A stretch of DNA of 64,000 nt from Dehalococcoidia bacterium. GTDB taxonomy: Bacteria > Chloroflexota > Dehalococcoidia > Bin125. Shown one piece after another: positions 6,116 to 51,478 of the stretch. The notes under the pieces were generated by a model. That model saw only the letters and a list, made by a program, of their open reading frames with translations. It had not been told where the DNA came from and did not search any database. The stretch lies in the NCBI GenBank assembly GCA_965203995.1, contig OZ241962.1, positions 971,463 to 1,035,462 of the forward strand. Direction: 5' to 3'. Numbering within the stretch: the first letter of the stretch is position 1; each line of letters opens with the position of its first letter. The translations under genes were made by a program, and so were the position numbers.

Positions 6116-6159
6116 CCTCGCACGCTGCCGCTCTACCGCCCGCGGCCTAAAGTTACTCC

Positions 6160-7605
6160 ATGCCCGCCACTGAAATTCCCGCCGACATCGTCCGCGCCTA
6201 CGACATGCGCGGCACGACCCCCGGTCAGATCGATGCCCGGGTCGCGTCGCGAGTCGGCCACGCCTTCGCCCAGTGGCTCCTCGATCGCGGCGCGACCTCA
6301 ATCGTCGTCGGACACGACACCCGCGCCAGCTCGCCCGACCTCTACGAAGCAGCCGTCGACGGCGCGCTGGCGGCCGGCATCGACGTCCACGCCGCCGGTC
6401 TCGCGCCCACGCCCGTGATCGGCTGGTCCGTCGACCGCGAATCGCTGGGCGGCGGCCTGATCGTCACCGCCAGTCACAACCCGCCCGAGTTCAACGGCTT
6501 CAAGCTGCTCGCCGAGCAGGCCCAACCGCTCCTGCCCGAAGAAATCCTGCACGTCGCGAGCCATCCGTTCAGAACCGGGTCCGCGGCCGGCGCGCGGCAC
6601 GCGTTCGATGCCGCGGGACCCTATCTCGCGCTGCTGCGGCGCCGCTTCGGCGACACCGCCGGCCCGGGCATGCGCGTCGCCATCGACGCCGGCAATGGGG
6701 CCGCGGCGGTCACCGCGCCCGCTGCCCTGCTCAACGCAGGCGCTCGACTGCATGCCCTACGCACGACCTCGAGACCGACCCTCAAGATCGCCGCCGACCC
6801 GCAGAATCCGGAGACGATGCGCGAGCTGGCCCGCGTCGTGCGCACCACCGGCGCGGAACTCGGGATCGCCTGGGACGGCGACGGCGACCGCATCGGCGTG
6901 CTCGACCACCTGGGCCGGCGCTACGAGGCCGACTGGCTCACGGCCGTCCTCGCTCGGCCGCTCCTGGCCCGCGTGCCCGGATCGGAAATCCTGCTCGACC
7001 TCAAGACCAGCAGCAGCGCCATCGACGATCTGCGCCGCCGCGGCGGACGCCCCCTCAGCGCCCGGACCGGCTATTCCTTCTTCCGCCGCATGATGCGCGA
7101 GCAGCGAATCGCCTTCGGCGGCGAGACCAGCGGACACATCATGTTCGGACCGGAGTACCGAGCAGGCGAGGACGCGCCCTGGATCGACGACGGCGTCTAC
7201 GCCGCCTGCGCGCTGCTCGCGCACCTGTCGGCCGCGGGACGAACGCTGGCCGAGGAGATGTCGGAAATCGAACCGCGCCCGATCTCGCCCGAGCTGCGCC
7301 TGCCCTGCCCCGACGCCGACAAGACACAGGTCGCGAGCGCGTTGGGCGATTGGTTCGCGGAGCGCTATCCAATGTCCGAAATCGACCGCAGCGACGGCGC
7401 CCGCGTACTGCTCGACGACGGTTGGCTCCACGCCCGTGCCTCGAACACCGCCCCGGCCCTGAGCCTGCGCTTCGAGGCCCGCGACGAACCCGGCTACCGG
7501 CGCCTGGCGGAACAACTGCACGTCGCGCTGCGCCTGCATCCGCAGGTCGAAGACACGGCTCAGTTGCAGCATCCGCCGATCGTCGGCCCACAGACCCTCA
7601 CCTGA
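6160..7605 (+). CDS. phosphomannomutase/phosphoglucomutase family protein (paralog 1)
   Basis: RAYDMRG, TASHNP, DGDGDR, GGETSGH, RASNT motifs. Confidence 0.92.
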   Translation: MPATEIPADIVRAYDMRGTTPGQIDARVASRVGHAFAQWLLDRGATSIVVGHDTRASSPDLYEAAVDGALAAGIDVHAAGLAPTPVIGWSVDRESLGGGLIVTASHNPPEFNGFKLLAEQAQPLLPEEILHVASHPFRTGSAAGARHAFDAAGPYLALLRRRFGDTAGPGMRVAIDAGNGAAAVTAPAALLNAGARLHALRTTSRPTLKIAADPQNPETMRELARVVRTTGAELGIAWDGDGDRIGVLDHLGRRYEADWLTAVLARPLLARVPGSEILLDLKTSSSAIDDLRRRGGRPLSARTGYSFFRRMMREQRIAFGGETSGHIMFGPEYRAGEDAPWIDDGVYAACALLAHLSAAGRTLAEEMSEIEPRPISPELRLPCPDADKTQVASALGDWFAERYPMSEIDRSDGARVLLDDGWLHARASNTAPALSLRFEARDEPGYRRLAEQLHVALRLHPQVEDTAQLQHPPIVGPQTLT

Positions 7606-8287
7606 CGAACAGCCCGACGCCGAGCCGCCGGGCCAGTTGCTCAACCTCATCCGACGGCGCTTCCTCCACCACTAACGTGGCCCGCACCGTTCCCGATTGG
7701 CCGTCTCGCGTCCGGTCGGCCAGAGATTGTTCCGCCTCGAGCACGGCGCGCATCTTGACCAACGCGAACAGCGTCTGCCGCAGCTCGTGCGGCTCTGCGC
7801 CTCGCGGACGGACCTCGATGATCAAGGCGTCCGACTCGCCGATGAACGCCGCGTCCGACTCGTCGCCCGACGGAAACCAGCGCTCGGTCGTGCCGGCAGA
7901 CCCGTCCGGCGCGCCCAGGGCCTCCCCGTTGGCCGCCGCCCACTCCTTCAGCCCCCGATGGGCCGAACTCTCCGCCGTGCCCGAGCGCGTCTTGGTCGGC
8001 GGCAAACCGAAGGCGTAGATGCCCGCCGTCACCCAGTCGTACGTCTGCAGGGCCGCGAGCTGATCGGCCGTGGGACTGCCGGCGAGCAGCGTCCGCAGAT
8101 CGGGCGCGTCGGGATACATCTCAGACAGCCGCTGCTGCATCCCGTCCGCAACGCCACTCAACTCCGACGCGTCCGACAATACCAACCGCGCCAGCGCCGC
8201 GCCGGCGTCGGCCGCCTCGCCTTTGCGCGCGGACTTGGTCAGGAAGCGGTAGAGGCTGCGTTGGCGGTCGATCTCGGTAGGCGGCAT
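7598..8287 (-). CDS. hypothetical protein, probable degenerate PD-(D/E)xK nuclease fold
   Basis: ESSAHRGLKEW...FPSGDESD...IIEVR...LVKMRAVL pattern; TACCCT -10 six nt upstream of ATG. Confidence 0.6.
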   Translation of the reverse strand: MPPTEIDRQRSLYRFLTKSARKGEAADAGAALARLVLSDASELSGVADGMQQRLSEMYPDAPDLRTLLAGSPTADQLAALQTYDWVTAGIYAFGLPPTKTRSGTAESSAHRGLKEWAAANGEALGAPDGSAGTTERWFPSGDESDAAFIGESDALIIEVRPRGAEPHELRQTLFALVKMRAVLEAEQSLADRTRDGQSGTVRATLVVEEAPSDEVEQLARRLGVGLFVR

Positions 8288-8306
8288 GGGCGTAGGGTAG
8301 GGAGCG

Positions 8307-9740
8307 ATGATCGCCGCCGTGCCCCGCGAGATCTTCCACGCCTACGACATTCGCGGCCGCGCCGTCGGCGCCGGCGCGTCGCTCACGCCCGACCTCGCCT
8401 TGCGCGTCGGCTTGGCCTTCGGCGAGCTGGTCAGGACAGACGAACAGGCCGAGCAGGTCGTGGTCGGCGGCGACCTGCGCCGCTCCACGCCCGCCCTGCA
8501 ACAGGCCGCCGTCGCCGGACTGCTCGACGCCGGTCTCGACATCGTCGACATCGGCCGGGCGCCGTCGCCGCTCGTCTACTGGACCACGGCATTGCTGACC
8601 CGGGAGCGACCCACCGCCGGACTCGTCGTCACCGCCTCGCACAATCCGCCCGACGACAACGGGATCAAGCTGCTTCATACCGACGCCATGCCGCTCACGC
8701 CGGAGCAGATCCAGTCGGTCGCCGACCGCGTGGCGTCGGGAGTCGCCGCCGCCAATCGTCAGGGCGAGCGCAGGCTCTGGAGCCCGCGACCGGACTACAT
8801 CCGCAGCCTGGCCGAGTCGTTCTCTCTGCCGCGTCCGCTGCGGGTCGCCATCGATCCCGGCAACGGCGCCGCCACCGTGACGGCAGCCGCGGCGTTGCGG
8901 GCGATCGGCTGCGAAGTATTCGCGATCAACGACGATCCGGAGGAGACCGAACCGGCCCATCCCGCCGATCCGCAGCATGCTCGCAACGTCGCGGAGCTGG
9001 CCTCGTTCGTCTCCGACTCAGCCGCCGACCTGGGCTTCGCCTTCGACGGCGACGGCGATCGGCTCGGCCTCGTCGACGAGCTGGGACGCCGCGCCCCGCC
9101 CGACCGGGTGCTCGCCTTGCTCGCCCAGGACTGGCTCGCGTCGCATCCCGGGGCCGCCATGCATGTCGACGTGAAGACCTCGCAGGCAGTCGTCGACCAC
9201 ATCCACCGTCTGGGCGGCCGCGCCGTCTTCGGACCCGTCGGACACTCGCTCGGCAAGTACGCCATGCGCGACGCGGGAATCGACTTCGGCGGCGAGGCCT
9301 CGACCCACTACTTCTACCGGATCGACGACCCGCCCCACATCAGCGACGACGCCGTCCGCACGGCCTGCCGCCTGGCGCGCCTCGCGTCCGGGTCGCCGCT
9401 CGCGCCGCTGCTCGACTCGATTCCCCGCTTCGTCACCTCGCCCGAAGTGAAGATCGACTGCCCCGACCCGATCAAACACCGCACCGCGCGGGCCATCGCC
9501 GACGCCGCCCGCAGGCGCTGGCCGCTCAACGAGATCGACGGCGCGCGGATCGACCTCTCAGGCGAGGCCGAGGGCGCGTGGTGCCTCGTCCGAGCCTCCA
9601 ACACGACGCCCGTCCTGACCGTGGTGGTCGAAGCGGCGACCGACGACGGCTACGACACCGCGCGGCGGATCGCGGCCGATCTGCTCGCCGACCGGCAGCT
9701 CGATCCCGCGCCGCTGCTCAGTCAACCGCCGCTTGACTGA
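8307..9740 (+). CDS. phosphomannomutase/phosphoglucomutase family protein (paralog 2)
   Basis: HAYDIRG, TASHNP, DGDGDR, GGEASTH, RASNT motifs. Confidence 0.92.
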   Translation: MIAAVPREIFHAYDIRGRAVGAGASLTPDLALRVGLAFGELVRTDEQAEQVVVGGDLRRSTPALQQAAVAGLLDAGLDIVDIGRAPSPLVYWTTALLTRERPTAGLVVTASHNPPDDNGIKLLHTDAMPLTPEQIQSVADRVASGVAAANRQGERRLWSPRPDYIRSLAESFSLPRPLRVAIDPGNGAATVTAAAALRAIGCEVFAINDDPEETEPAHPADPQHARNVAELASFVSDSAADLGFAFDGDGDRLGLVDELGRRAPPDRVLALLAQDWLASHPGAAMHVDVKTSQAVVDHIHRLGGRAVFGPVGHSLGKYAMRDAGIDFGGEASTHYFYRIDDPPHISDDAVRTACRLARLASGSPLAPLLDSIPRFVTSPEVKIDCPDPIKHRTARAIADAARRRWPLNEIDGARIDLSGEAEGAWCLVRASNTTPVLTVVVEAATDDGYDTARRIAADLLADRQLDPAPLLSQPPLD

Positions 9741-10761
9741 GGTCCGCGGCCGGGAGTTCGAACACGTCGGCCAGCAACTCGTAGGACCGGATCCGCGCCG
9801 CGAAGTCGTAGGTGATCGTCAGCACGATGAACTCGTCCACGTCGTAGGCCGCCGCCAGGCCTTCCAGCTTCTCGCGCACGCGCCTGGGCGACCCGTGGAT
9901 GCTGCGGTTCTGCATGTAGCCGATGTAGTCCAGCTCGGGCTGCGAGTAGGGGAAGTTCAGCGCTTCCTCAACCGACGGGATGCCCCCGCGCGCGCCGCGA
10001 TTGCCCTTGATCCGCCAGCACCAGCGGCTCCAGCAGAGTTGCTCCGCCTCTTCGTCGGTCTCGGCCACGGTCACCGAGACGCCCAGCGAGGCTCGCGGCT
10101 CCGAGCTGACCGGCGAGGGCTGAAACCGCTCGCGATACTTGCGCACCACCTGCTCGCCGCCCTCGGGTGAGATGAAGTGGGCGAAACAGTGCGACCAGCC
10201 CAGCTCGGCCGCGACGTGGCCGCCGTAGTGGGACGAGCCCAGCAGCCACAGCTCGGGCATCGGCGCGTCGGGCGGCGACGCGCGCACCTCGCGGTACTGG
10301 TGGTCGTGGGGCAGGTCGTCGGCCAACCAGCCGTACAGGTCAAGTAACTGCTCCGGAAAGTGGTCGATGCCCAGCGCCCCGGGACCATGCACCAGGGCTC
10401 GAGCCGTGCGGCCGTCGGAGCCCGGCGCGCGCCCCACACCGAGGTCAATCCGGCCCGGAAACTGGGTCGTGATCGTGCGGAAGTTCTCGGCCACCTTCAG
10501 CGAGCTGTAGTGCGGCAGCATGATCCCGCCCGAGCCGACCCGGATCTGCGAGGTGCGCCAGGCGACCTGCGGAATCAGCACTTCCGGCGAGGCGCAGGCC
10601 AGCGAGCCGGCGTTGTGATGCTCGGCCAGCCAGTAGCGCGAATAGCCGAGCCGGTCGGTGGTCTGGGCCAATTCGAAGGTCTCGCCGATCGCCGTCGCCG
10701 CCGTGCCGCCGTCGCGGATCGGAATCTGATCGAGCACGCCGAGTCGGATGTCGGAGGACAT
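9718..10761 (-). CDS. LLM-class flavin-dependent oxidoreductase (group 1 luciferase-like)
   Basis: RYWLAEHHN, GSGGIMLPHY, GRIDLGVGRAPG, WLLGSS. Confidence 0.92.
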   Translation of the reverse strand: MSSDIRLGVLDQIPIRDGGTAATAIGETFELAQTTDRLGYSRYWLAEHHNAGSLACASPEVLIPQVAWRTSQIRVGSGGIMLPHYSSLKVAENFRTITTQFPGRIDLGVGRAPGSDGRTARALVHGPGALGIDHFPEQLLDLYGWLADDLPHDHQYREVRASPPDAPMPELWLLGSSHYGGHVAAELGWSHCFAHFISPEGGEQVVRKYRERFQPSPVSSEPRASLGVSVTVAETDEEAEQLCWSRWCWRIKGNRGARGGIPSVEEALNFPYSQPELDYIGYMQNRSIHGSPRRVREKLEGLAAAYDVDEFIVLTITYDFAARIRSYELLADVFELPAADLSQAAVD

Positions 10762-12516: not shown

Positions 12517-13689
12517 TTAGTCCGACGCCGCCTCGGCCGGAGCCTGGAGGAAGTCGGGCACGTCCTGGCCGGCGTCGGTGAAGGCCTTGGCCAGGACGTC
12601 GTTGCGGCTGAAGGAAACCGCCCCGCCGCCCGAGGCGACCCACTCCTGGGTGCCGCGCACGGACTCGAGCTGACCCTGGAAGCGCGGCGCGACGTAGCGC
12701 GCGAACAGCTCGTAGGACTTGCGGATGCCCTCGCGGTTGGCCCACTCGTGGGCGAGCATCATCAAGCCTCCGAAGCCGCCCGAGTTCTCCTGCAGGATCT
12801 CGATCGCCTTGACCGCGTCGTCGGGGTCGCCAATGATCGCGCCGCCCGTCTCGACCGCGCCCTCGGGCGTCTCGGCCGTCCCGGGCAGGACCGCCTGCAG
12901 CGTGTCGCGGAAGTAGTCGATCTGCCACGCGCGCCAGCCCTCGCGGGCTTCGGCAAACGCCTGCTCGCGGGTCTCGGCGATGTACATCGGAATGACCAGA
13001 CGCCACTTGTTGCGGTCCACGACCTGGCCCTCGCGCTCGGCGACCTCCTCGACCTCGGTCCACTGGCCCTCGAGGTTCGAGCGTCCGCCGGGCAGGTAGA
13101 CGCCGATGCTGAGCATGCCCATCCCGTACTTGCCGGCCATCTGCCGTCCGGCCGGCGACACGGTCGAGGCGACCGCCATCTCGAAGTGCGGCTTGGTGTA
13201 GGGCGAGACCTGCAGCCGCGCGTCGGTCAGCTCGAACCAGTCCGTCTTCATGTTGACCGGACCGTCCTGCTTGAGCAGCGCCAGGATCGCGCGCAGCGAT
13301 TCGTCCATGCGCTGCCGCTGGTAGAGCGGATCGATGCCCATCATCCGCGCGTCCGACGAGAGCGCGCCGGGTCCGACGCCCATCATCGCCCGGCCGCGGG
13401 TCATGTGGTCGAGTTGGATCATGCGGTCGACGACCATCAGCGGGTGGTGATAGGGCAGCGAGATCACGCCCGTGCCGAGGCGGATATTGCTGGTTCGCTC
13501 GGCGGCCGCAGCGATGAACACCTCGGGCGACGCGATCAGCTCCCAGCCGGCCGAGTGATGCTCGCCGATCCAGGCCTCGTCGTAGCCAAGCTGATCGAGC
13601 CACTCGACCAGCTCCAGGTCGCGGTGGATCGCCAGCGACGGGTTCTCGCCGACGCGGTGGAACGGCGCCATGAAGATGCCAAAGTCCAT
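12517..13689 (-). CDS. LLM-class flavin-dependent monooxygenase (limonene 1,2-monooxygenase-like)
   Basis: MDFGIFMAPFH, WIGEHHSAGWE, GVGPGALSSD, SYELFARYVAP; start moved to 13689. Confidence 0.9.
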   Translation of the reverse strand: MDFGIFMAPFHRVGENPSLAIHRDLELVEWLDQLGYDEAWIGEHHSAGWELIASPEVFIAAAAERTSNIRLGTGVISLPYHHPLMVVDRMIQLDHMTRGRAMMGVGPGALSSDARMMGIDPLYQRQRMDESLRAILALLKQDGPVNMKTDWFELTDARLQVSPYTKPHFEMAVASTVSPAGRQMAGKYGMGMLSIGVYLPGGRSNLEGQWTEVEEVAEREGQVVDRNKWRLVIPMYIAETREQAFAEAREGWRAWQIDYFRDTLQAVLPGTAETPEGAVETGGAIIGDPDDAVKAIEILQENSGGFGGLMMLAHEWANREGIRKSYELFARYVAPRFQGQLESVRGTQEWVASGGGAVSFSRNDVLAKAFTDAGQDVPDFLQAPAEAASD

Positions 13690-13810
13690 TCGTCCTGCAC
13701 TTGCCACGATGTCCCCCCAGACTGCTTGCCCGGCCGCGTCGCCGGTCGGCGTTACCTTAATCGCGAGTCTAACCACCAGCCCATTCGCCGGGCAGCCGAC
13801 AGGGACCGCG

Positions 13811-17616: not shown

Positions 17617-18519
17617 ATGCGTGTACTCGCTCCGCCCAACGCCGCCACGCTGGCCGGCAAGATTGAAGCCGTCAAACAGTTGGAAGCCGACGGATTTGCC
17701 GGCGCATTCCTGCCGTCGATGGCGCACGACGCGATGACCGTGCTGGCCCTGGCGGCGGGCGAGACATCGGAGATCGAACTCGGCACCTACGTGATTCCGA
17801 CCTACACGCGACATCCCGTGGCGATGGCGCAGCAGGCGCTGGCCGTCAATGCCGCGGCGGGCGGCCGGTTCACGCTCGGCCTGGGACTCTCGCATGAGGT
17901 GGTGATTGCGGACTCCTGGGGGCTCGATTTCAGCAACGTCGTGCGGCACATGCGCGAGTACCTGGAGATTCTCGTCCCGCTGATGCGCGGCGAGGTGGTG
18001 CATCACCAGGGCGAGGCATTCGAGGTCCACTCCCAGGTCGAGCTGCCCGACTGCGAGGCGCCGCCGGTGATCGTCGCGGCGCTGGGACCGCAGATGCTGC
18101 GGGTCACCGGCCGGCTGGCCGACGGGACGGCGCTCTGGCTGGCGGGGCCGAAGTGGATCGAGGAAGTGGTGATCCCGGAGATGGGCGGCGCGGCCCGCGA
18201 GGCTGGCAGGCCCGCGCCCCGCGTGATCGCCGGTGTGCCGATTTCGGTGACTGCAGACCCCGATGGGACACGCGAGCGGATCTCCAAGGCGTTCGCGATG
18301 TACAACACGCTGCCCTCGTATCAGCGCGTGATCCAGGGATCTGGGGCCGACGACCCGGCGGGTGTGTCGATCGTGGGCAGCGAGGAGGAGGTCGAGCGTG
18401 AGTTGCTGCGCTGGCGGGAGATCGGCGTGACCGATTTCTACGCGGCCTTCGAGGGCGTCGACGCCGACGAGCGGCAGCGGACGCGGGAGTTCATCGCGGC
18501 GCTGGCGCCGAGCCTCTAG
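17617..18519 (+). CDS. LLM-class F420-dependent oxidoreductase
   Basis: PTYTRHPVAMAQQA, GRFTLGLGLSH, AALGPQML, LPSY. Confidence 0.9.
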   Translation: MRVLAPPNAATLAGKIEAVKQLEADGFAGAFLPSMAHDAMTVLALAAGETSEIELGTYVIPTYTRHPVAMAQQALAVNAAAGGRFTLGLGLSHEVVIADSWGLDFSNVVRHMREYLEILVPLMRGEVVHHQGEAFEVHSQVELPDCEAPPVIVAALGPQMLRVTGRLADGTALWLAGPKWIEEVVIPEMGGAAREAGRPAPRVIAGVPISVTADPDGTRERISKAFAMYNTLPSYQRVIQGSGADDPAGVSIVGSEEEVERELLRWREIGVTDFYAAFEGVDADERQRTREFIAALAPSL

Positions 18520-25285: not shown

Positions 25286-25395
25286 GTGTGCTGCCGGCTG
25301 TAGGGTGAAGCGCGGCTGATCGAGTGACGCGGCGTGCTGATAAGCGACGGCCGACGCATCGCCGCGTTGAGTCGTCAGGCGGAGGATCGTCCCTC

Positions 25396-26127
25396 ATGGT
25401 ACAACGGGCTGAGAGGTTGGAGAGACTGCTCGGAAATTTGCCGGCGTTCCTGCTCTTGGTGTTCATCCTCGCTACTTTCACTGTGCTGCTTGGCAACGCC
25501 AACATCCTCAGTTTGTATTTTGGTCAATTCCCAGAAACTGGCGTCCTAGATCTTGGCAAGCGAGTCGAGGTGGCTCCACTGAAGGGCATTGAACTCTTAC
25601 TGATTCCACTGACGGCGTACGTCGTCGCGCGCTGGAGCGTCGGATCTGACAGGTTCCGGCGCTGGGCGAGGGACATAGGCCCGATGCGGCCAATCTTGTT
25701 CTTTGCGACGATGCTCGCGGTGTTGGTGTACTTCTTGTTCTCAGTACAAGAGCCTATGGTCAGCTTCGGTCCGGATCACTTCGGCGTGCCGCGCTGGTTC
25801 GGCGCTCTCTTACTCGTCCTGTTCACCTGGCTCTGGCAACCGTTATTCCCCAGGACGATCGCGAATCTCGCCGCAATGGTGGTGGGCCCCACCGCGATCG
25901 CCGTGTTCGGCTACGCGTTTTTTGATTCGTACGCGCGGTACTTCTACTATGAAGCGTGTGACGGCTGTGAACTCCGGGGAGTTCTGCTCGCGATCCTAGT
26001 CATGCTGGTTGAGGCGCCGCTGTTGTTTATCTCGTCGCCTCGCGCCCATGCAATCTGGACCGGCACCGTGATGACGTGTACTGCACTGTTTGGTCTTGCC
26101 TGGCTGTCAGCTTGGGTATCAGCTTGA
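25396..26127 (+). CDS. hypothetical membrane protein (visibly lower GC)
   Basis: About seven hydrophobic segments; GGAGG upstream of ATG 25396. Confidence 0.55.
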   Translation: MVQRAERLERLLGNLPAFLLLVFILATFTVLLGNANILSLYFGQFPETGVLDLGKRVEVAPLKGIELLLIPLTAYVVARWSVGSDRFRRWARDIGPMRPILFFATMLAVLVYFLFSVQEPMVSFGPDHFGVPRWFGALLLVLFTWLWQPLFPRTIANLAAMVVGPTAIAVFGYAFFDSYARYFYYEACDGCELRGVLLAILVMLVEAPLLFISSPRAHAIWTGTVMTCTALFGLAWLSAWVSA

Positions 26128-26149
26128 GCCACAAGCATCGGCGCGAGTG

Positions 26150-28315
<2,166 letters not shown>

Positions 28316-28388
28316 GGCAACCTATTCGTCTCGCTTCAGCGCGCGGCCAGAGAGCGGAGCGTAACAACAGTGTTCGGGCACGGCGAGT

Positions 28389-29717
28389 CTATGGTCGCTC
28401 GCCGGCGAGGTAGGCGGTGGCGTAGCCGAGGCCCTGGGCGCCGCCGGGTTTGCGGGTTTGCTGACCCCAGGTGGGACCGTCGATCCAGAACCCCTCGGGA
28501 ATGATGAAGCCGCGCATCATCAACAGCGGTTGATCGCCCACCTCCGCGATTCGGTGGCCGATCTGCAGCAGGGCCTGGCCCAGGGCGGTCTGCTCGAAGA
28601 TCCAGGTGTGCATGTCGTGCTGCGACGGCGGGCTGGTGCCGGGTCGCGAGGTGACCGCCTCCTGGTAGAAGGCGCGCAGGTCCTCGACGGCGTAGCGCAG
28701 CAGCATCGGCATCCGGTGGATCCAGTTTGGTTCGGAGGCCGCCGCCGGGATGTCCGAGAATCCCTCGCCTTGGGCGCAGGCGACGACGAGGGAGACGACG
28801 GCATCGATCTGCTCGGGAGTCGCGCCGCTCATGCCGATCGTGGTCCGGCCACGGTGGCGGCGGGTCTCTTCGTACCAGGGCGTGAGCAGGTCGACTTCGC
28901 GCCGCAGCGCGGACTCAAGGTCGCTGACATCGGGCTCGGGCATCGCGATCGAGCAGGCCCAGACGCCGTCGCCGTTGCCGTCCGGCGCTTCGCGGGGGAA
29001 GTCGGCGATCGTCGGTTCGGTCGCCGTTTCAAAGAGGCGCAGGGCGCTGCGCAGGACATCGGTCTGGAACTCGGGATCGTCGGCGACGCCGAGCGGTCGA
29101 CCGAGCGGGAACGGCACCCAGAGCGCGCGCGGCGGGTTGACGACTTCGGTGTGCTCGCGAATCAGGCTGATGCCGGTGGTCGCGATGCCTTCGGCTTCGA
29201 GCAGCCAGGAGAGGGTACCGACGGTACCCGTGCAGGCCGGTCAAACGGGAGTCAGCATGGCGCAGTCGACGCCGGAGCCGCGCATGCGCTGGGCCAGGTC
29301 GGCGGCCGCGTCCTTGAGCAGGTAGGGATTGGGGTTGGAGCCGAGCACGGAGTAGTGCCACTCGGAGACCGCGCCGATCTCGCCGGCCTGGGCCAGTTCG
29401 CGCATCCGATCGAGCGGGAGGACGACGTTGACGTCGCGCTGGTAGTGGGTGCGGTCGAAGTTGACGCTGACCTGGGTCTGGACGAGGTCGGCGGGGTTTA
29501 CGTCGTTGGGGATGACGCGATAGCCCTGGTCGCCGAAGCGGAACGGCCGGTCGTCGCGGCGATGCAGGCCGGCGGAGGTGATCAGGGCGATCGTCGCCTC
29601 GGCCAGCGGCGGCGGCGTGACGAACGGCGTGCCGTCGAGCGGCATCTGCGCGAAGCGCTTGCCCATGTTGCGCATGTGATGCGCTTCTTCGGGATGCAAC
29701 TCACTGAGGCGAACCAT
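28389..29717 (-). CDS. PrdB/GrdB-like (glycine/sarcosine/betaine/D-proline reductase B) selenoprotein with C-terminal extension; Sec at TGA 29243-29241
   Basis: ALITSAGLH, DVNVVLPLDRMREL, MLTPV-U-PAC, PPRALWVPFPLGRPLG; both called ORFs are in one frame joined by TGA; hairpin follows. Confidence 0.88.
29213..29229 (-). promoter_or_regulatory. putative bacterial SECIS hairpin GGGTACC-GTC-GGTACCC
   Basis: Perfect 7-bp stem starting 11 nt after the in-frame UGA, G in the apical loop. Confidence 0.7.
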
Positions 29718-29746
29718 GCCGCAATCCTTCCCGTCTCAGCCCGAGG

Positions 29747-30091
29747 CTAGGGCGCTTCCTCGATGGTCGCCGAGAGCGACCCCTGGCAGTGGGGGATCCT
29801 GGGGTCCGGGCCCCAACTGTGGATCTGATCCTGGTGCTTCTTGACCGTCTCGTAGTCGGCCGTCTCGACGATGCCGCGGCCGTGGCCGTCAATCATCGAG
29901 GCGATCGCGAACGCCTTCTCACGCGAGTATCCTAACACGCCGCCGAGCATTTCGATCACGTACTCGTAGGAGTGGTCGTCCGAGTCGTGCAGGAAGAGGT
30001 GATAACGCTTCTCCAGCTCGCTGCCGCGTTCGGCGTCGACATCATCCTCGACAACGACATCGGGTCGCGGGACCGAAGGTTGCGAGGTCAT
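29747..30091 (-). CDS. clpS: ATP-dependent Clp protease adaptor ClpS
   Basis: YHLFLHDSDDHSYEYVIEML...GRGIV...LSATIEEA. Confidence 0.85.
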   Translation of the reverse strand: MTSQPSVPRPDVVVEDDVDAERGSELEKRYHLFLHDSDDHSYEYVIEMLGGVLGYSREKAFAIASMIDGHGRGIVETADYETVKKHQDQIHSWGPDPRIPHCQGSLSATIEEAP

Positions 30092-31518
30092 GCGGCGGCC
30101 TCGTGCAGGGCGCGCAGTTCCGGCGCGTCGGAGTCGGCGCCGGCCCAGCGCTCGGCGGCGCGGCGGAAGGATTGCTTCGCGTCGGCCATGTCGCCCTTCG
30201 CCGATTGGGCCCGGCCCCAGCGGAAGAGGTCGCGGGCGGTCGCGCCTCGGTCGAGGCGCTCGCGCAAGAGATCGAGCGCTGCCTCGCTGCGGCCGGCGCG
30301 CAGGTTGGCCTCGACCAGAGTCTCTTCGAAGACGTCGCGTTGAGCGTTAGAACCGCCCAGGGTGACCAGCAGCTCGCGAACGTCCGACAAGCCATCGGCC
30401 GCCGCCTCGTAGTCGCCCTGCCCGAAGGCGGAAAGCGCTTCGACCACGGGCGCAACCACCGAGCCGGCGGTCGGATGCCCTCGGTCCGCCGCCTCGCGCA
30501 ATCCATCGATCAGCGCGCCCAGCCCGACCTCGTCGCCGAGCGCCGCCAGCGCCATGGCGCGATGCACATCCACCCAGGCCGTGCCCGCTCGCGGAAAGGC
30601 CTGATCGGCGACCTCGGCAATCGCACGCCAACCGTGATCATCCGCCCGGTTCCCGGCGACGCTGTCGTGCAATCGACAGCGCCAGAGCAGGGACGCGCCG
30701 TCGGCAACCGCGCCCAGGGCGTCGCCGTGTTCGTCGGCGCCGGGACGGATCGTGTCGTCGTGCAAGGCCAACGCCTCCGAGCGCTTGCCGTTGGCGAGCA
30801 GGAACAGGGCCTGGTGCCAGGTCAGATGGCGGAAGAAGCCCGCTCGCTCGGGAAAGTCGGTCAGCCATTCACCGAGGAACCCCGCGCCGCCGTCGATGTC
30901 GTGCTCCTCGAAGAAGACGTGCGACATCGCGTGGGCCGCCTGGCCGTTCTGCCGGCGCAGGTCGAGCGAGCGCTGGACCAGTACGCGAGCTCGTTCGAGC
31001 TCGTCCATTTCGTGGTTGGCGAACGCGTGCCAGCTCAGGAACCACCAGTCGTCGCCGAAGGCGGGCGCAAGGCGGTCGAACTGCTCCAGCATCCGCTCGC
31101 GCTTCTCGACGCCGCCGCCGTAGAAGTTGCCGCCCAGCCACTGCAAGACGATCGGCGCGTCGCGCGGCGTGTCGTGAAGATGCGCGTCGATCAATGCCGG
31201 CGCCTCCGACGCCTTGCCCCGCGCCGCCGCGCCGAGGATCGCGGCGTGCCGCTGCTCGCGCGGGCTCGCCTGCTCGGCCAGTTCGTGGGCCTGGTTGGCG
31301 AGTTCGGCTGCCAGCTTGCCGTTGCCGCGGAAGAGGTGGAACAGTCCAAGTTGCGAATGGGCCAGCGCGAAGTTCGGATCCAGCTCGATCGCCCGGCCCA
31401 ACGCCTCGTCCACTCCCAGGCGGTACGAGAGCATCCGGTCGACGCCCAGGCGATAGGCCTCTGCAGCTTCCTCCGAGGTGGTCAGCGGCAGGCCCCAGGC
31501 ATCGTTGGGCAAGGTCAT
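30088..31518 (-). CDS. TPR repeat protein (TTC38-like)
   Basis: AHAMSHVFFE, HLTWHQALF, LGGSNAQRDVF motifs. Confidence 0.85.
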   Translation of the reverse strand: MTLPNDAWGLPLTTSEEAAEAYRLGVDRMLSYRLGVDEALGRAIELDPNFALAHSQLGLFHLFRGNGKLAAELANQAHELAEQASPREQRHAAILGAAARGKASEAPALIDAHLHDTPRDAPIVLQWLGGNFYGGGVEKRERMLEQFDRLAPAFGDDWWFLSWHAFANHEMDELERARVLVQRSLDLRRQNGQAAHAMSHVFFEEHDIDGGAGFLGEWLTDFPERAGFFRHLTWHQALFLLANGKRSEALALHDDTIRPGADEHGDALGAVADGASLLWRCRLHDSVAGNRADDHGWRAIAEVADQAFPRAGTAWVDVHRAMALAALGDEVGLGALIDGLREAADRGHPTAGSVVAPVVEALSAFGQGDYEAAADGLSDVRELLVTLGGSNAQRDVFEETLVEANLRAGRSEAALDLLRERLDRGATARDLFRWGRAQSAKGDMADAKQSFRRAAERWAGADSDAPELRALHEAAA

Positions 31519-31615
31519 CGGGTACTCCTCGCGCGGTTGCGTTCAGGCTTCAGCCTAGTCAGGCTAGTCGTCAGCGGGCGTTGGTGTCGCCCGGGCCAGC
31601 GCCTAGGCTGGCCGC

Positions 31616-32602
31616 ATGACGACGAGCGACGAACCGGGCATCGTGCGCCGGGCGCCCCATCTAGCGGCACTGATCGAACGCTCCGGCGGCGGGCCGATCG
31701 ACCCCGATCGGGCGCGCGGGGTGCTGCTCGGACTGGCTGTGGGCAACCTCTTGGGACTGCCGGTCGAGGGCGTCGGCCGGGAGGCGATCGAGAGCCGCTA
31801 TCCGCAGGGCATCCGCGAGATCGACCCGCGCGAGGTTCAGCGTCCGCTGGACGACGATCTCGCCCAGGCCGTCGACCTGGCGGAAGCGCTGGTCCATGAC
31901 GCAGATCCGGTTGCAGGATTCACGGAGCGGCTGGTCAGGTGGCGCAGCGAGAACGGCCGCGGGATCGGGATCATGACCTCGACCGTGATCGATTATCTCG
32001 AAGTGGGACTGGGCGTCCCGGGCGCGGCGCGAGCGTTCTGGCAGGAGCGCGGCAGCCCGGAGACTCAGCCCAACGGCGCGCTGATGCGCTGCGCGCCGGC
32101 GGCGCTCAGGTACGCGCGGCAGCCGGAGCAACTGATCGAGCAGACGGCCGCGACCTGCGCCGTCACGCACTTCGCGCCCGGCGCTCAGTGGTCCTGCATC
32201 CTGGTCAATGCCGCCATCGCGATGCTGCTGCAGGGAGCCGAGCCGAGCCGCGACGACCTCGTGCTCGCCGCCAGCCAGGACGGAGCGCCGGCCGAGATGA
32301 TCGCCTGGTCGCTGGCAGTCCCCGAAGATATCGGCCGGCGGATCGATGAGGAGCGGGTCAGCGGTCACACCTACCTGTGCATGCAGGCCGCGCTCTGGTG
32401 CTTGGATACTGCCGACAGCCTGGAGGCGGCGCTGATCCGGATCGTCAGCGCCGGCGGCGACACCGACACCAACGGAGCCGTGGCCGGCGCCGTCCTGGGC
32501 GCGCGCTACGGGGCCTCGGCGATCCCGGGGCGCTGGCTGGAGTGTGTTCCGCAGCGGGAACGGATTGACGGGGCGACCCGAGCGCTGCTGAGCGGCGGAT
32601 AG
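31616..32602 (+). CDS. ADP-ribosylglycohydrolase family protein
   Basis: GLAVGNLLG, DDDLAQ, NGALMR, TH, GGDTDTNGAVAGAVLGA. Confidence 0.9.
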   Translation: MTTSDEPGIVRRAPHLAALIERSGGGPIDPDRARGVLLGLAVGNLLGLPVEGVGREAIESRYPQGIREIDPREVQRPLDDDLAQAVDLAEALVHDADPVAGFTERLVRWRSENGRGIGIMTSTVIDYLEVGLGVPGAARAFWQERGSPETQPNGALMRCAPAALRYARQPEQLIEQTAATCAVTHFAPGAQWSCILVNAAIAMLLQGAEPSRDDLVLAASQDGAPAEMIAWSLAVPEDIGRRIDEERVSGHTYLCMQAALWCLDTADSLEAALIRIVSAGGDTDTNGAVAGAVLGARYGASAIPGRWLECVPQRERIDGATRALLSGG

Positions 32603-41204: not shown

Positions 41205-41666
41205 TCACTCCATCGCGTCGATCGCAGCCTGCGCTTCCTCGCTGCTGACGACTGTTACCTCCTGGTGGAACCACCAGTTGCCGCCCTCGGGATCGACGGC
41301 GCGGTAGGTGCGGTCGCCGTAGAACTGATCCTCGGGCTCCTGCAGGATCGTCGCGCCTTCGGCCGCGGCCTGGGCGTGATGCGCGTCGACGTCGTCGACG
41401 TAGACCATCACGCTCGCGTGCAGGTGCGGCAGCCGGCCGGGACCGCCGAGTCCGCCCTCCGGATAGGCCGTGGCCAGCGTCACCTCTTCGCCGCCGTAGA
41501 CCAGTGAGGCGTGGCCGACGCTGCCGTCGGGCATGTCGAGACGAAAGCGCTCTTCGAATCCAAAGGCGCGGCAGAGGAACTCGATGATCGCCGGCGCATC
41601 GTCGTAGGAAAGCGCTGGGACGATTCGCTGTCGTCGCCCGGCGCTCAGGTCAGGTTGTTCCGCCAT
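41205..41666 (-). CDS. VOC/glyoxalase/bleomycin-resistance family protein 4
   Basis: PALSYDDA...AFGFEE, VYVDDVDAH, DQFYG, DPEGGNWWF. Confidence 0.9.
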   Translation of the reverse strand: MAEQPDLSAGRRQRIVPALSYDDAPAIIEFLCRAFGFEERFRLDMPDGSVGHASLVYGGEEVTLATAYPEGGLGGPGRLPHLHASVMVYVDDVDAHHAQAAAEGATILQEPEDQFYGDRTYRAVDPEGGNWWFHQEVTVVSSEEAQAAIDAME

Positions 41667-41670
41667 TGTG

Positions 41671-42132
41671 TTACTCCCTTGAATCCATGTCGGCCATCGC
41701 TGCGGCCATTTCTTCCGGCGTTACGTCGCGCACGTGCTGGTGGAAGTCCCAGCCGACGCCCTCCGGATCGACCGCGCGGTAGGTGCGGTCGCCGTAGAAC
41801 TGGTCGGCGGGCTCCTGCGTAATCTCGGCGCCGGCCGCGCGCGCCCGTTCGCAATGCGCGTCGAGATCGTCCACATAGACGACCACCTGCGCGTGGACGC
41901 CGCCGAGCGCCTGCGGGCTGCTCAGGCCGATCTCGGGGAAGGCGCTGGCGAGCATCAGCGTCTCGCCGTTCATCTGCAGTTCGCAGTGTCCGACCGTGCC
42001 GTCGGGCATCTCCAGCAACAGCCCTTGCTCGAAGCCGAAGGCGGTCTTGAGAAACTCGATCACGGCCGGCGCGTCGGCGTAGCTCAGGTAGGGCAGGATG
42101 CGTTGGCTGCCCTCCGGTGGGTTCTGGACCAT
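41671..42132 (-). CDS. VOC/glyoxalase/bleomycin-resistance family protein 3
   Basis: PYLSYADA...AFGFEQ, VYVDDLDAH, DQFYG, DPEG; start 42132. Confidence 0.9.
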   Translation of the reverse strand: MVQNPPEGSQRILPYLSYADAPAVIEFLKTAFGFEQGLLLEMPDGTVGHCELQMNGETLMLASAFPEIGLSSPQALGGVHAQVVVYVDDLDAHCERARAAGAEITQEPADQFYGDRTYRAVDPEGVGWDFHQHVRDVTPEEMAAAMADMDSRE

Positions 42133-42161
42133 GGTTGCCGCCTTTCGTTGCGGTGTGCGTG

Positions 42162-42626
42162 CTAGTCCCGGTCGCTGGCGATCTTCAGCATCTCGGCCGC
42201 CGACTCGTGATCCGGCACCTGCCTGAGCTGCTGCTGGAAGGTCCAACGATGACCCTCGAGGTCCTGGACCCAATAGTTGCGCGCGCCCCAGAACTGGTCC
42301 GCCGGCTCGGCCAGGATGTCGGCGCCCTCGGCCTGCGCACGGGCGAAGTGCGCGTCGACATCGTCCACGTAGACCGTGATCTGTTGATGCAGTGCCGCTA
42401 ACTCGCTGGGCGACTTGGTGCCCGCTTCGTCGAACGGCGAGGCGAGCATGATCTGCTCGCCGTTGAAGCTGAGCGCGGCATTGCCGATGCGGCCGTCGCC
42501 GACCTCCATCCTCCGAATCTCCTCGAACCCGAACACGCGGCAGAGCCATTCAATCGCCGCCGGCGCATCCGCATAAGTGAGCGCCGGCACGATGCGCTGA
42601 TGACCCAACTCCCCGTAGTCCGCCAT
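42162..42626 (-). CDS. VOC/glyoxalase/bleomycin-resistance family protein 2
   Basis: PALTYADA...FGFEE, VYVDDVDAH, DQFWG, DLEGHRWTF; start 42626. Confidence 0.9.
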   Translation of the reverse strand: MADYGELGHQRIVPALTYADAPAAIEWLCRVFGFEEIRRMEVGDGRIGNAALSFNGEQIMLASPFDEAGTKSPSELAALHQQITVYVDDVDAHFARAQAEGADILAEPADQFWGARNYWVQDLEGHRWTFQQQLRQVPDHESAAEMLKIASDRD

Positions 42627-42680
42627 CGCGTGCCCCACATCCTCGAGTCCTCGGATCGCGCAATCGCGATCTACGGTAGC

Positions 42681-42692
42681 GCATATATGTTC
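42681..42692 (-). promoter_or_regulatory. LexA-type box GAACATATATGC upstream of VOC 2
   Basis: Partial match to GAAC-N4-GTTC followed by TACCGT -10 on the minus strand. Confidence 0.45.
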
Positions 42693-42720
42693 GGATAGGC
42701 AAGCGGTTCGGGATATGCCC

Positions 42721-43203
42721 TCACCACCTGAGCAACTCTTTCCGGACTTCCTCCTGGGGCACCGACCGGATCCGCTCGAAGAAGCTCCACCAGTGGCCTT
42801 CCAGGTCCAGCGCGTGATACTCGCGCAGACCCCAGAACTGGTCGTCGAGCGGCAAGATGATCCCGGCTCCTTCGGACACCGCGCGTTCGTAGTGCGCGTC
42901 GACATTGTCGACCCGGACGTGAATCCGCGAGATCGAGTACGCGCCCGGCTTGGCGGCTCGGTTGACGTACTGCTCCAGCCTGGACGAGAGCATCACGACC
43001 TGGCCGTCCAGCGAGAGCGCGGCGTGGGCGACCCGGCCGTCGGGGATCGACAGGACCTCGTCGGGAGTGAACCCGAACGCGCGGCCGAGCCAGTCGATCG
43101 CCTCGGGAGCGTGCTTGTAGATCAGGTAGGGGAACACGCCCTGGCGGTCGACTTCCGCTTCGACGGCGGTCCGTTCCCGGCTCACGACTTGTGCATCGAC
43201 CAT
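42721..43203 (-). CDS. VOC/glyoxalase/bleomycin-resistance family protein 1
   Basis: PYLIYKHA...AFGF, VDNVDAH, DQFWG, DLEGHWWSF; start 43203 or 43221. Confidence 0.88.
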   Translation of the reverse strand: MVDAQVVSRERTAVEAEVDRQGVFPYLIYKHAPEAIDWLGRAFGFTPDEVLSIPDGRVAHAALSLDGQVVMLSSRLEQYVNRAAKPGAYSISRIHVRVDNVDAHYERAVSEGAGIILPLDDQFWGLREYHALDLEGHWWSFFERIRSVPQEEVRKELLRW

Positions 43204-43230
43204 GTCATTGCCCTTTCCCATTGCAAGATC

Positions 43231-48393: not shown

Positions 48394-49469
48394 CCACCGC
48401 GGACGAGGATCCGGGCGCACACAGCGACGAGGGCGCGGCCGTCGGACGCGTAATCGACGGGTCCGAGTCGGAACCAGATGTCCAGGATCGCGCCCTGCGC
48501 CCCTCGCGGCTCGAGGACTTCGTCGGCCAGGCGACCGTGCACGAGTCGATCCGGATCGCCGTCGACGCCGCCCGCGGGCGCGACGAAGCGCTCGACCACC
48601 TGCTGCTCTACGGACCGCCCGGACTGGGCAAGACGACCCTGGCGCGGATCGTCGCCCGCGAACTCGGCGTCAACCTGCGGCCGACCAGCGGCCCCGCGAT
48701 CCAGCGCGCCGGCGACATCGCCGCCATCCTCACCACCATGCAGACCCACGACGTGCTCTTCATCGACGAGATTCACCGCGTCCCGCGCTCGGCCGAGGAG
48801 GTGCTCTACTCGGCCATGGAGGACTTTCAGCTCTTCATGATGATCGGCAGTGGACCCGCCGCCCGCAGCGTCCAACTCTCGGTCAAGCCCTTCACCCTGA
48901 TCGGCGCGACCACACGCTACGCGATGATCTCGCCGCCCTTGCGCGATCGCTTCGGCATGGTCCAGCGGCTCGACTTCTATAACACCGCGGAACTCGAACA
49001 GGTCATCGTCCGCTCCGCCGACGCGCTCGAAGTCGAGCTGCAGCCCGCCGGCGCGCGCACGCTGGCCGAGCGCGCCCGCGGCACGCCGAGGGTCGCCAAC
49101 CGCTTGCTGCGCCGCGTGCGCGACTACGCCGAGGTCCGCGCCGACGGCGTCATCACCCGGCAAGTCGCGGACGAAGCGCTGCGCGGTCTGCGCGTGGACG
49201 AGCTCGGCCTCGACGAGCACGACCGCAACCTGCTGCGCTCCCTGATCGAGGGCTTCAACGGCGGCCCCGTCGGCCTCGACACGCTGGCCGCCTCGATCGC
49301 CGAGGACGCCGATACCGTCATGGACGTCTACGAGCCCTACCTGATCCAGCTCGGCTTCCTCGCCCGAACCCCACGAGGCCGCGTCGCCATGCCCGCCGCC
49401 TGGACTCACCTCGGTCTGACGCAGAGGAACTCGCCGCCCGACCAGGGAGCCCTGTTCGAGTCGGTCTAA
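48390..49469 (+). CDS. ruvB: Holliday junction branch migration ATPase RuvB
   Basis: [44 protein letters not shown]...TPRGR. Confidence 0.97.
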
Positions 49470-51478
49470 TCCAACGCCAGCGCCGGCTCGCTGGAATCCG
49501 CCCGCGATCCCGTCCCGTTCGTCCCGTTGCGGCCGTTCGCGCTCGTCCGCTCCCGCATCCGATCGAGCACCGCCAGCGCCGCCTCCTCGTCGAACTCCAC
49601 CGACTCCTGCGCCGCGTACATCATCCGGTAGAGCTTCGCGTAGTAGCCGTCGACCTGGAGCAGCTCCTCGTGCGTGCCCTGCTCCATGATCCGGCCGTAC
49701 TCCAGCACGATGATCCGGTCGACCGAGCGAATCGTCGACAGCCGGTGCGCAATCACGAACGCCGTCCGACCGCGCAGCACGCGCGCGATCGCCTGCTGGA
49801 TCAGCGCCTCGGTCTGCGAGTCCACGTTCGCCGTCGCCTCGTCCAGGATCAGGATGCGCGGATCGCTGAGGATCGCCCGCGCGAACGCCACGAGTTGTCG
49901 CTGCCCGATCGAGAGGTTCTGCGCCCGCTCCGCCAGCGGCGTGTCGTAGCTCTGCGGGAGACGCTCGATCCACTCGTCGGCGCCGACCACCCGCGCCGCG
50001 TCAATCGCCTGTTCGCGCGTCGCCCCGAGGTTGCCGTACATGATGTTGTCCAGCACCGTGCCCGAGAACAGGAACGGATCTTGCAGGACCACGCCCACCC
50101 GCTGCACCAGCGACGCCCGCGTGACCTCGCGCACGTCGTGCCCGTCGATCCGCACCGCGCCCTCGGTCACCTCGTAGTTGCGCGTGATCAGCGAGGTGAT
50201 CGACGTCTTGCCCGCGCCGGTCTCTCCGACCAGCGCGACCGTCTCGCCCGGCTGCACTTCCAGATCGAGGTCGAACAACACCCGCACGCCGTCGACGTAT
50301 TCGAGCGACACATTGTCGAAGTGGACGTGCCCCGCGATGTCCGGCAGATCCTCCGCGCCGGGCGAGTCTTCGATCTCGGGCTCGGTGTCGAGCACCTCGA
50401 AGACCCGCTCCGCTCCGGCCATCGCGCGCTGGAACATCGTGTACTGCAGCACCAGGTCGCGGACTGGGTCGAAGAACCGCTGGATGCCGATCGCAAACGC
50501 GATGATCGCCGCCACGCCGACCGCCTCCTCAAGATTCCCGCCGCTCAGACGCGCCGCCGCGACCACGATGATCAGCGCCGTCGCCAGCGCGATCAGGATC
50601 TCCACCAGCGGCATGATCGCCGCCGACAGCAGGCCGGCCCGACGAGTCGCGCGCAGGTTCCAGTTGTTGATCCGGTCGAAGCGCTTGGCGTTCTCCGACT
50701 CGCGGTTCAGACTCTGCACCACGCGGACCCCGTTCAGGTCCTCGTTCAAGGTCGAGTTCACGGCCGCAATCGCCACGCGCGTCTCCAGGAACGCCATCCG
50801 CGCCCGCTTGCTCCAGAACGCCATCGAAACGATCAGGATCGGCAGCACGGCAAACGCCACCAGCGCCAGTTGCCAGTCGATAAACAGCATCACCGCCATG
50901 ATGATCGCCAGGCCGAAGATGTCGCCGATCACCGTCAGCACGCCGGAGGTCAACATCTCCTGCAGCACCTGCACGTCCGACGTCACCCGGGACATGATCG
51001 CCCCGACTTCACCCCGGTCGTAGAAGCGGTGCTCCAGCTTCATCAGGTGATCGAACACTTCCTGGCGCATCCGTCTCAGAATCGGATGGCCCACATTCGC
51101 CATCAGCCATTGACGCAAGAACTCGGCGGCCCAGGAGACCAGCACGATCGCGCCAAAGGCAATCGCAATCCGGTCCAGCTCCGAGCGAATCCCGTTCTCC
51201 AGCGCGCCTTGCAGCGCCTGGTAGACCACCAGCACCTGGATGTTGAACGCCACCGCAAAAGACGCGTTGGCCACAATCGCCGCGGCCAGGCGCTTCTTGT
51301 GCGGGCCGATGTAGCGGCCGAAGCGGCGCACCAGCCGCGGATTGTAGAGCGAGCCGTATTCCTTGTCCCAGCCGTCGGCCATTGACGCCGACGACGCCCA
51401 GGCGCTGCGCGGACCGCTGCCGCCGCCGCCCAGGTTGGAGGTCCAGCCTCCGGCCATGCCGCCGCCCATCATGCCCAT
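49466..51478 (-). CDS. ABC exporter subunit (TMD + NBD)
   Basis: [29 protein letters not shown]. Confidence 0.93.

Follow-up and report, generated by a model that had tools for sequence, protein, structure and literature searches.

On the minus strand of a 64,000-nucleotide stretch of a Dehalococcoidia bacterium genome (GenBank assembly GCA_965203995.1, contig OZ241962.1, positions 971,463 to 1,035,462; hereafter the window), two open reading frames (ORFs) called with translation table 11 follow each other in the same frame, one of 158 amino acids (aa) that begins with ATG (29241..29717) and one of 242 aa that begins with GTG (28389..29117). Are these two small genes or the halves of one selenoprotein gene, and what would such a protein do? 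A first-pass annotation had joined the two ORFs into a hidden selenoprotein of 442 aa with the motif P-V-U-P-A-C, and our read-through translation agrees. With TGA read as selenocysteine (Sec, U), the frame yields 442 residues followed by TAG, and the sole recoded codon is U159, in the context CCC GTT TGA CCG GCC TGC. The two ORFs are thus one intact gene, split at the UGA by gene callers. It is highly probable, in our judgement, that this gene encodes a 442-residue selenoprotein with a conserved UGA159 and stem-loop, which resembles the D-proline reductase subunit PrdB and most likely acts as a self-contained reductase.

The in-frame UGA codon and its stem-loop

Both halves of the gene carry the coding signature of the window, with a G+C content at third codon positions (GC3) of 0.87-0.90 on either side of the TGA. 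Of all TGA codons in the window, just two are flanked on both sides by 50 or more open codons with coding-like GC1, GC2 and GC3 values; the second, at 2514, is a genuine stop followed by the ATG of the next gene. We found no further credible gene with an in-frame TGA in the window, and none in the high-GC related loci. The table-11 ORF located 3' of the TGA begins only at codon 201, and codons 160-200 contain no start codon. This stretch is the most conserved part of the protein and harbors the invariant residues P160, C162, T180, R187, P196 and R197. The ratio of nonsynonymous to synonymous substitution rates (dN/dS) between the window gene and its closest relative (locus L013) is 0.12 for the N-terminal and 0.167 for the C-terminal half, and over six relatives it ranges from 0.08 to 0.16 in codons 1-158 and from 0.13 to 0.24 in codons 160-442. 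Both halves are, as these ratios indicate, under purifying selection.

We collected related loci in a scan of species-representative genomes, in which 372 relatives were confirmed and the best 80 matches were kept, yielding 69 loci. Aligning homologues at the UGA codon, the check that the first-pass annotation had called for, revealed a TGA at the aligned codon in 69/69 loci, a figure that would be too high for Sec in the wider family, as these loci are the closest relatives and Cys, Gly and Ser forms exist. A pattern search for the TGA form recovered 88 full-length copies (one copy in 52 loci, two in tandem in 15 and three in 2), which have the N-terminus MVRLSDLHPEEA and the in-frame TGA in common; they are mostly 411-453 codons long and start with MVRL(S/D)DLHPEEA. 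All 18 full-length homologues without the TGA have a Cys at position 159. After a 400-455 aa length filter, which dropped 9 of the 89 Sec copies, 80 Sec rows were left for comparison. P160 and C162 are invariant, with C162 present in 80/80 Sec forms and in 18/18 Cys forms.

Two protein searches returned 268 database relatives, of which 231 are partial sequences that break at the Sec codon: 225 C-terminal ones begin just after position 159, and 6 N-terminal ones end exactly at 158. Position 159 is spanned by 34 entries (29 Cys, 2 Gly, 2 Ser and 1 gap), and three belong to no class. TGA serves as the ordinary stop codon of 16 of the 36 family-supported genes in the window, and the codon is therefore not reassigned genome-wide.

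The 69 loci derive from Dehalococcoidia/Chloroflexota, from Acidimicrobiales and other Actinomycetota, and from marine Gammaproteobacteria. In a quick maximum-likelihood tree of the 80 Sec and 18 Cys rows, all Sec forms are found on one side of a branch supported by a Shimodaira-Hasegawa-like approximate likelihood ratio test (SH-aLRT) value of 99. Judged from this tree, the window gene belongs to a Sec-containing clade of marine Dehalococcoidia, Actinomycetota and Gammaproteobacteria. The gammaproteobacterial copies are nested among the actinomycetotal ones, which suggests transfer between marine lineages. Tandem arrangements of two or three copies, each with its own in-frame TGA and hairpin, occur in 17 of the 69 loci (L001, L006, L008-L010, L018-L020, L022, L023, L025-L027, L032, L033, L037 and L038; for example L023:5777-10724), and the window has a single copy. 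Four assemblies contain a Sec paralogue at a second locus (L028 and L043, L007 and L066, L009 and L065, L023 and L064), with up to four copies per genome.

The UGA is followed by a hairpin that had been proposed to resemble a selenocysteine insertion sequence (SECIS). Its position is as claimed: the perfect hairpin GGGTACC-GTC-GGTACCC begins exactly 11 nt after the TGA. Such a hairpin alone is not rare, as the window contains 17 perfect hairpins with a 7-bp stem and a 3-nt loop, compared with about 10 in shuffled sequences; only 1 of the 1390 TGA triplets in the window has one at +11. Folding z-scores of the hairpin in seven relatives range from -2.4 to +0.2. Support for the element comes from comparison with relatives and not from folding energy. 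An alignment of 89 sequences over positions -6 to +60 relative to the TGA required no gaps. In the 7-bp register 83.9% of cells are paired, compared with 42-60% in controls with shifted 3' partners. If a single base is allowed to bulge on the 3' side, the value rises to 92.0% (40-58% with shifted partners), and this register better fits the tandem-paralogue clades. It has a covariation score of 0.418, compared with at most 0.19 in controls, a score that was reached by 0 of 500 shuffles, although this shuffle control does not represent a probability for related sequences. The unbulged stem is paired in 89.2% of cells in the distant clade alone (29 sequences), compared with 41-68% in controls.

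At three of the pairs, the tree requires a minimum of 7, 3 and 11 changes of pair type. Pair 25:33, which joins the first base of codon 165 (Thr/Ala) to the synonymous third base of Gly167, is G-C in 50 and A-U in 29 of 87 distinct rows and has undergone at least 7 type changes. The alignment thus contains compensatory base changes at the hairpin position across phyla. The loop G and U are invariant. Val166 and Gly167, whose codons supply the loop GU and the closing GG, are present in 80/80 and 77/80 Sec forms, respectively, but in only 10/18 and 4/18 Cys forms; their retention in Sec but not in Cys forms points to a constraint at the RNA level.

We compared the element with the fdhF-type SECIS of Escherichia coli, for which the portion of the source available to us describes a 17-nt upper stem-loop located 11 nt from the UGA at positions 15-31, with conserved G23 and U24 (PMC8659212). 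The stem-loop in the window is likewise intragenic, 17 nt long, located at +11 and at positions 15-31, and has a conserved loop G and U. It differs in that its loop has three bases (GUN), or five in sequences that lack the closing pair, in that the loop G and U are found at positions 22-23 rather than 23-24 of the E. coli element as described there, and in that the bulge in the tandem-paralogue clades is on the 3' side (column 35) and not at U17 on the 5' side. No Rfam family reached its gathering score over the whole window, and none was found at E ≤ 10 over 29100-29320.

Several points weigh against reading UGA159 as selenocysteine. The folding energy of the hairpin is by itself not significant (z = -1.4 and -1.97), and since the hairpin is located within coding sequence, part of its conservation is at the protein level. 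We found no selA, selB, selD or tRNA-Sec gene within the 64-kb window, which contains no tRNA gene at all, and no tRNA-Sec gene in 58 related loci. One may thus envision that a suppressor or a SelB-like route inserts Cys, Trp or Gly at UGA159, or that translation mostly terminates there and yields a regulated truncated product. Cys works at this position in homologues, and the UGA is invariably followed by C in our alignment; UGA-C is a weak termination context. Such a scenario would leave unaccounted for a hairpin that is placed and sized like a SelB-dependent bacterial SECIS and whose extra constraint is seen only in TGA forms, and it finds no help from a codon that has kept its meaning as a stop elsewhere. 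The homologous codon in annotated PrdB is TGA as well, and PrdB is an established selenoprotein according to the part of a review that we draw on. In addition, selA and selB are reported, in the accessible part of the study, for most sponge-symbiont bins of various phyla (PMC5649159), which we take as a lead only. We consider decoding as an amino acid other than Sec, or regulated termination, improbable. For insertion of selenocysteine, SelB bound to Sec-tRNA would recognize the intragenic stem-loop and direct incorporation at UGA159.

Relation to PrdB and the C-terminal extension

The protein had been described as a PrdB/GrdB-like UxxC protein, and profile searches bear this out. The Pfam family GRDB (PF07355) matches residues 38-156 with 39.2 bits (gathering cut-off 22) and also matches 18 of the 19 members of a family alignment. 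The best NCBIfam match is PrdB (TIGR04483; E = 2.5e-30, residues 36-233), which scores 105.7 bits against a curated cut-off of 300. TIGR04483 is the best family model for 19/19 alignment members (best member E = 7e-44), and 11 further relatives gave 57-175 bits or no match, none being seen to reach the cut-off. TIGR01918 matches with 48 bits (cut-off 65.45) and only over model positions 221-422 of 431; residues 38-234 correspond to the C-terminal half of GrdB-type models, all of which remain below their cut-offs. A tblastn search of a plasmid collection returned 24 records, each covering only query residues ~25-243. The annotation under the match is prdB in 16 records and 'glycine/sarcosine/betaine reductase selenoprotein B family protein' in 2; another 2 have no feature under the match and 4 have no annotation.

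As references we used the prdB genes on plasmids of Peptoclostridium acidaminophilum and Ligilactobacillus salivarius, which encode proteins of 237-241 residues. Both genes contain an in-frame TGA (U151) in the motif A-G-U-G-T-C, and U159 and C162 of the window protein align with U151 and C154 of both annotated PrdB proteins. BLASTP against L. salivarius PrdB gave 29% identity over 224 residues (E = 1e-29, residues 25-243). The window protein shares D95, N97, P101, E174, G177, T180, P196, R197, G206, G210 and Q218 with PrdB, and in both the window gene and the reference prdB genes the in-frame TGA that specifies Sec is followed by a stem-loop. These alignments establish homology to PrdB/GrdB for the first ~245 residues. 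The UxxC Sec motif is also common to GrdB, GrdF and GrdH, as far as the consulted part of the literature describes them. In contrast to GrdB, the window protein has no counterpart of the ~220-residue GrdB N-terminal half and has a different C-terminal domain in its place.

In the alignment, both annotated PrdB proteins run only to about residue 245 of the window protein, and the PrdB profile stops at residue 233, in line with the ~200 extra C-terminal residues noticed at first. Sec and Cys forms alike retain this extension, with E274, D346, Y351, W372 and G380 among the conserved residues, and a third conserved cysteine at its start, Cys255, is present in 80/80 Sec and 14/18 Cys forms. No Pfam or NCBIfam family was found for the extension, neither with the window protein nor with the 19-member family alignment; a search for similarity to the N-terminal part found none, and no internal duplication was detected. 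The window protein has no relative in the PDB by sequence. Matches of the family profile to PDB entries, among them glutaredoxins at the CPxC site (E = 0.8-1.6), were non-significant and were dismissed. In the ESM Atlas, the Cys homologue P0084 matched only GRDB clusters, and its C-terminal part only 'hypothetical protein' clusters, all below 0.9. We found no fused longer forms of the family, which is weak evidence.

We then considered the gene neighborhood. Among the 52 other ORFs in the window (12 of them re-scanned with Pfam), there is no prdA, prdD, prdE, proline racemase or grd gene. Clustering of the flanks of 29 distant loci revealed no prd partner and no gene that recurs in more than 7 loci. 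Pfam searches covered 70 of the 191 ORFs listed in the flanks of 11 loci, the 70 coming from 10 distant loci (L058 was left out altogether), and these 70 ORFs contain no PrdA/GrdE, GrdA, PrdC or thioredoxin reductase; they encode transporters, sulfatases, PhyH dioxygenases, enoyl-CoA hydratases, monooxygenases and similar proteins. The earlier statement that prdA and grd partners are missing from the window consequently holds for the ORFs scanned, and for the flanks of relatives that we covered. In the L. salivarius plasmid, by comparison, prdA, prdB, prdD, a component-B subunit and proline racemase are found in a row, with selB nearby.

Two observations concern neighbors of relatives. A gene of the Ldh_2 family (malate/L-lactate dehydrogenase type) is located within ~2.6 kb of the selenoprotein gene in 6 of 29 distant loci, in 5 of them at most 1.4 kb away (L043, L045, L055, L061, L065 and L066; for example L055:5493-6665), and P. 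acidaminophilum encodes an 'Ldh family oxidoreductase' at a distance of ~2.7 kb from its true prdB (L070:8289-9389). This is a weak lead that may reflect chance, and 0 of 3 scanned Ldh_2 proteins reach a specific NCBIfam cut-off. A Roseomonas plasmid (L071:4869-7254) carries a 302-aa Cys-type relative (C-P-V-C) tail to tail with an annotated protein adenylyltransferase SelO, with a LysR regulator beyond the SelO gene; prdA is absent.

Could the protein nevertheless be a true PrdB subunit of D-proline reductase, with the PrdA proprotein encoded elsewhere and a role in Stickland-type proline reduction? TIGR04483 is the best model for every member of the family alignment, the Sec and Cys residues align with the U-x-x-C of PrdB, and marine homologues are filed as 'proline reductase PrdB' in those parts of the literature on which we draw. 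However, the score of the window protein falls far short of the curated cut-off, and its 442 residues, ~197 of them extra C-terminal ones that form a conserved domain, compare with 237-241 in PrdB. Several PrdB motifs differ: the family has U-P-x-C where PrdB has U-G-T-C, and the window protein has SVNFDR for SHGGYDN and FPLGRPLG for VP(I/M)GANAG. The prdA-prdB-prdD-prdE-racemase operon is missing, its genes being absent from the window, from the 70 flank ORFs and from the flank clusters of the 29 loci, whereas prdA, prdD, prdE and a proline racemase are all present beside L. salivarius prdB. Finally, the window family is found in marine Dehalococcoidia, Actinomycetota and Gammaproteobacteria, and PrdB in amino-acid-fermenting Bacillota. 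By these sequence comparisons the window protein is not a true PrdB, and we regard the PrdB assignment as very unlikely. The components of GrdB systems, grdA, grdE, grdC and grdD, were likewise not found among the 52 window and 70 flank ORFs.

That the TGA is a real stop, in a pseudogene, through a sequencing error or between two small genes of 158 and 242 aa, can be dismissed as next to impossible, for although the frame is interrupted under table 11, public databases mostly hold the two fragments and TGA is a normal stop in this genome, the same TGA recurs in 88 copies from 69 loci and three phyla, purifying selection acts on both halves, the start-less codons 160-200 are the most conserved stretch, and the Cys homologues are continuous proteins of the same architecture.

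Proposed function and the published family

A Sec-containing, self-contained reductase accounts best for these findings. Following the scheme proposed for PrdB and GrdB, Sec159 would act as the nucleophile, Cys162 would resolve the intermediate through a selenenylsulfide, and a thiol donor would re-reduce the enzyme. The protein is most likely a thiol/selenol-dependent reductase with a substrate and role other than those of a D-proline reductase subunit. We favor a self-contained enzyme because no PrdA/GrdE or GrdA gene is found beside the family in the lineages covered and because the protein has its own ~197-residue domain with Cys255. What tells against this part of our reading is that the proposed catalysis, the function given to the extension and the term stand-alone are all things we infer, and a partner gene may be located elsewhere in the genome.

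A bolder proposal, which we offer tentatively and hold to be rather unlikely, is that the abundant marine 'PrdB' selenoproteins do not belong to any proline reductase and form a distinct self-contained family, in which the C-terminal domain with Cys255 replaces the substrate-binding or electron-relay role of PrdA/GrdE/GrdA. This would allow aerobic or microaerobic marine heterotrophs and sponge symbionts to reductively cleave C-N (or C-X) bonds in a common dissolved organic compound. If true, the 3-4 Sec paralogues per genome in some Dehalococcoidia would reflect substrate diversification.

The family as such is not new. In the part of their Sargasso Sea survey available to us, Zhang, Fomenko and Gladyshev (2005) reported 'proline reductase PrdB' (UXXC) as the third most abundant family, with 42 Sec genes and 1 Cys homologue (PMC1088965). 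The accessible part of the Global Ocean Sampling (GOS) survey by Zhang and Gladyshev (2008) counts 235 Sec and 110 Cys forms under pfam07355 (PMC2398784). The 'PrdB' label is retained in a 2021 marine survey and in two reviews, as far as the portions at hand go. Based on a shared UxxC motif, the pfam07355 domain, occurrence in marine bacteria and an excess of Sec over Cys forms in the available portions of these surveys, the window gene is most probably a member of this family; the comparison is by motif, domain and habitat, not by sequence. The first-pass annotation thus gave an impression of more novelty than is due to the family, as a marine UxxC pfam07355 family has since 2005 been counted with the most abundant ocean selenoproteins (PMC1088965, PMC2398784, both seen in part). 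In the parts available to us, the survey papers treat the family as a proline reductase, and the term 'PrdA' occurs 0 times in the main text of the GOS paper. In the literature on marine 'PrdB', taken without its supplementary tables and partly from excerpts, we found no mention of failed PrdB membership or of a conserved extra domain, nor of the absence of prdA from the flanks, of tandem Sec paralogues in Dehalococcoidia or of the extent of mis-annotation. Literature on SAR202 and selenocysteine contained nothing on the window family.

With 231 of 268 database relatives truncated at the Sec codon and no NCBIfam model reaching its cut-off, the family is systematically annotated as a pair of 'hypothetical proteins' or wrongly labelled as a proline reductase; the few database relatives listed with a source name are called 'hypothetical protein'. 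This concerns one of the commoner ocean selenoproteins, with a substrate and function unassigned, a domain without known family and a lineage-specific tandem expansion. Presence of the gene labels an organism as one that uses selenocysteine, and the E. coli-like SECIS geometry makes the gene a tractable candidate for expression and substrate finding.

Gene coordinates and other features of the window

The positions of the gene and of its elements are summarized in Table 1.

Table 1. Elements of the selenoprotein gene, in window coordinates
Feature	Position	Strand	Description	Basis
Whole selenoprotein gene	28389..29717	minus	442 codons; ATG 29717-29715; Sec codon 159; stop TAG 28391-28389	
Shine-Dalgarno-like GGGAAGGA	29725..29732	minus	7 nt upstream of ATG	read from sequence
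PrdB/GrdB-like domain	28983..29645	minus	~residues 25-245	Pfam, NCBIfam, BLASTP, alignment
UGA codon 159	29241..29243	minus	U of U-P-A-C; read as selenocysteine	
Codon 162 (TGC)	29232..29234	minus	presumed resolving Cys of UxxC	invariant; aligns with PrdB C154
SECIS-like stem-loop	29212..29229	minus	17-nt hairpin 29229-29213; 29212 pairs outermost in the bulged register of the family	
C-terminal extension	28392..28982	minus	~residues 246-442; absent from PrdB and GrdB	
Codon 255 (Cys)	28953..28955	minus	third conserved Cys, start of extension	conservation

In the window, the selenoprotein gene is preceded by a TPR-like and a ClpS-like gene and followed by recQ; genes for an ADP-ribosylglycohydrolase, two short-chain dehydrogenases/reductases (SDRs) and the helicase Lhr are also nearby. 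The ClpS/TPR/RecQ/Lhr order is kept only in Dehalococcoidia loci, and we thus read it as lineage synteny rather than as a sign of function. The stop codon of the upstream ClpS-like gene is located at 29749-29747. A scan of 28000-31800 gave neither a sigma-70-like promoter nor a terminator, from which we propose that the selenoprotein gene may be co-transcribed with the upstream genes.

Between lhr and recQ, ~850 bp (25300-26150) have a G+C content of 56-60%, compared with a window mean of 68%. This stretch contains a 267-aa ORF (25324-26127, plus strand) for which neither a Pfam, NCBIfam or PHROG family nor a counterpart in any related locus was found; recQ and lhr are adjacent in L013. A lone gene resembling the large subunit of phage terminase (61134-62693, plus strand; phrog_2, E = 3.7e-26; TIGR01547 below cut-off) is located between clpB and an enoyl-CoA hydratase gene, next to two small ORFs without a PHROG family. 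A 959-aa ORF at 3422-6301 (minus strand) has a coding-like GC3 of 0.82 and no Pfam or NCBIfam family. Two phosphomutase paralogues (6160-9740) are separated by ~0.7 kb, and the opposite strand between them carries a 229-aa ORF. The window further contains four genes for luciferase-like/F420-type oxidoreductases (41-697, 9718-10761, 12517-13776 and 17617-18519), three glyoxalase/VOC-fold genes in a row (41205-43221) and two adjoining ABC exporter genes (49466-53353).

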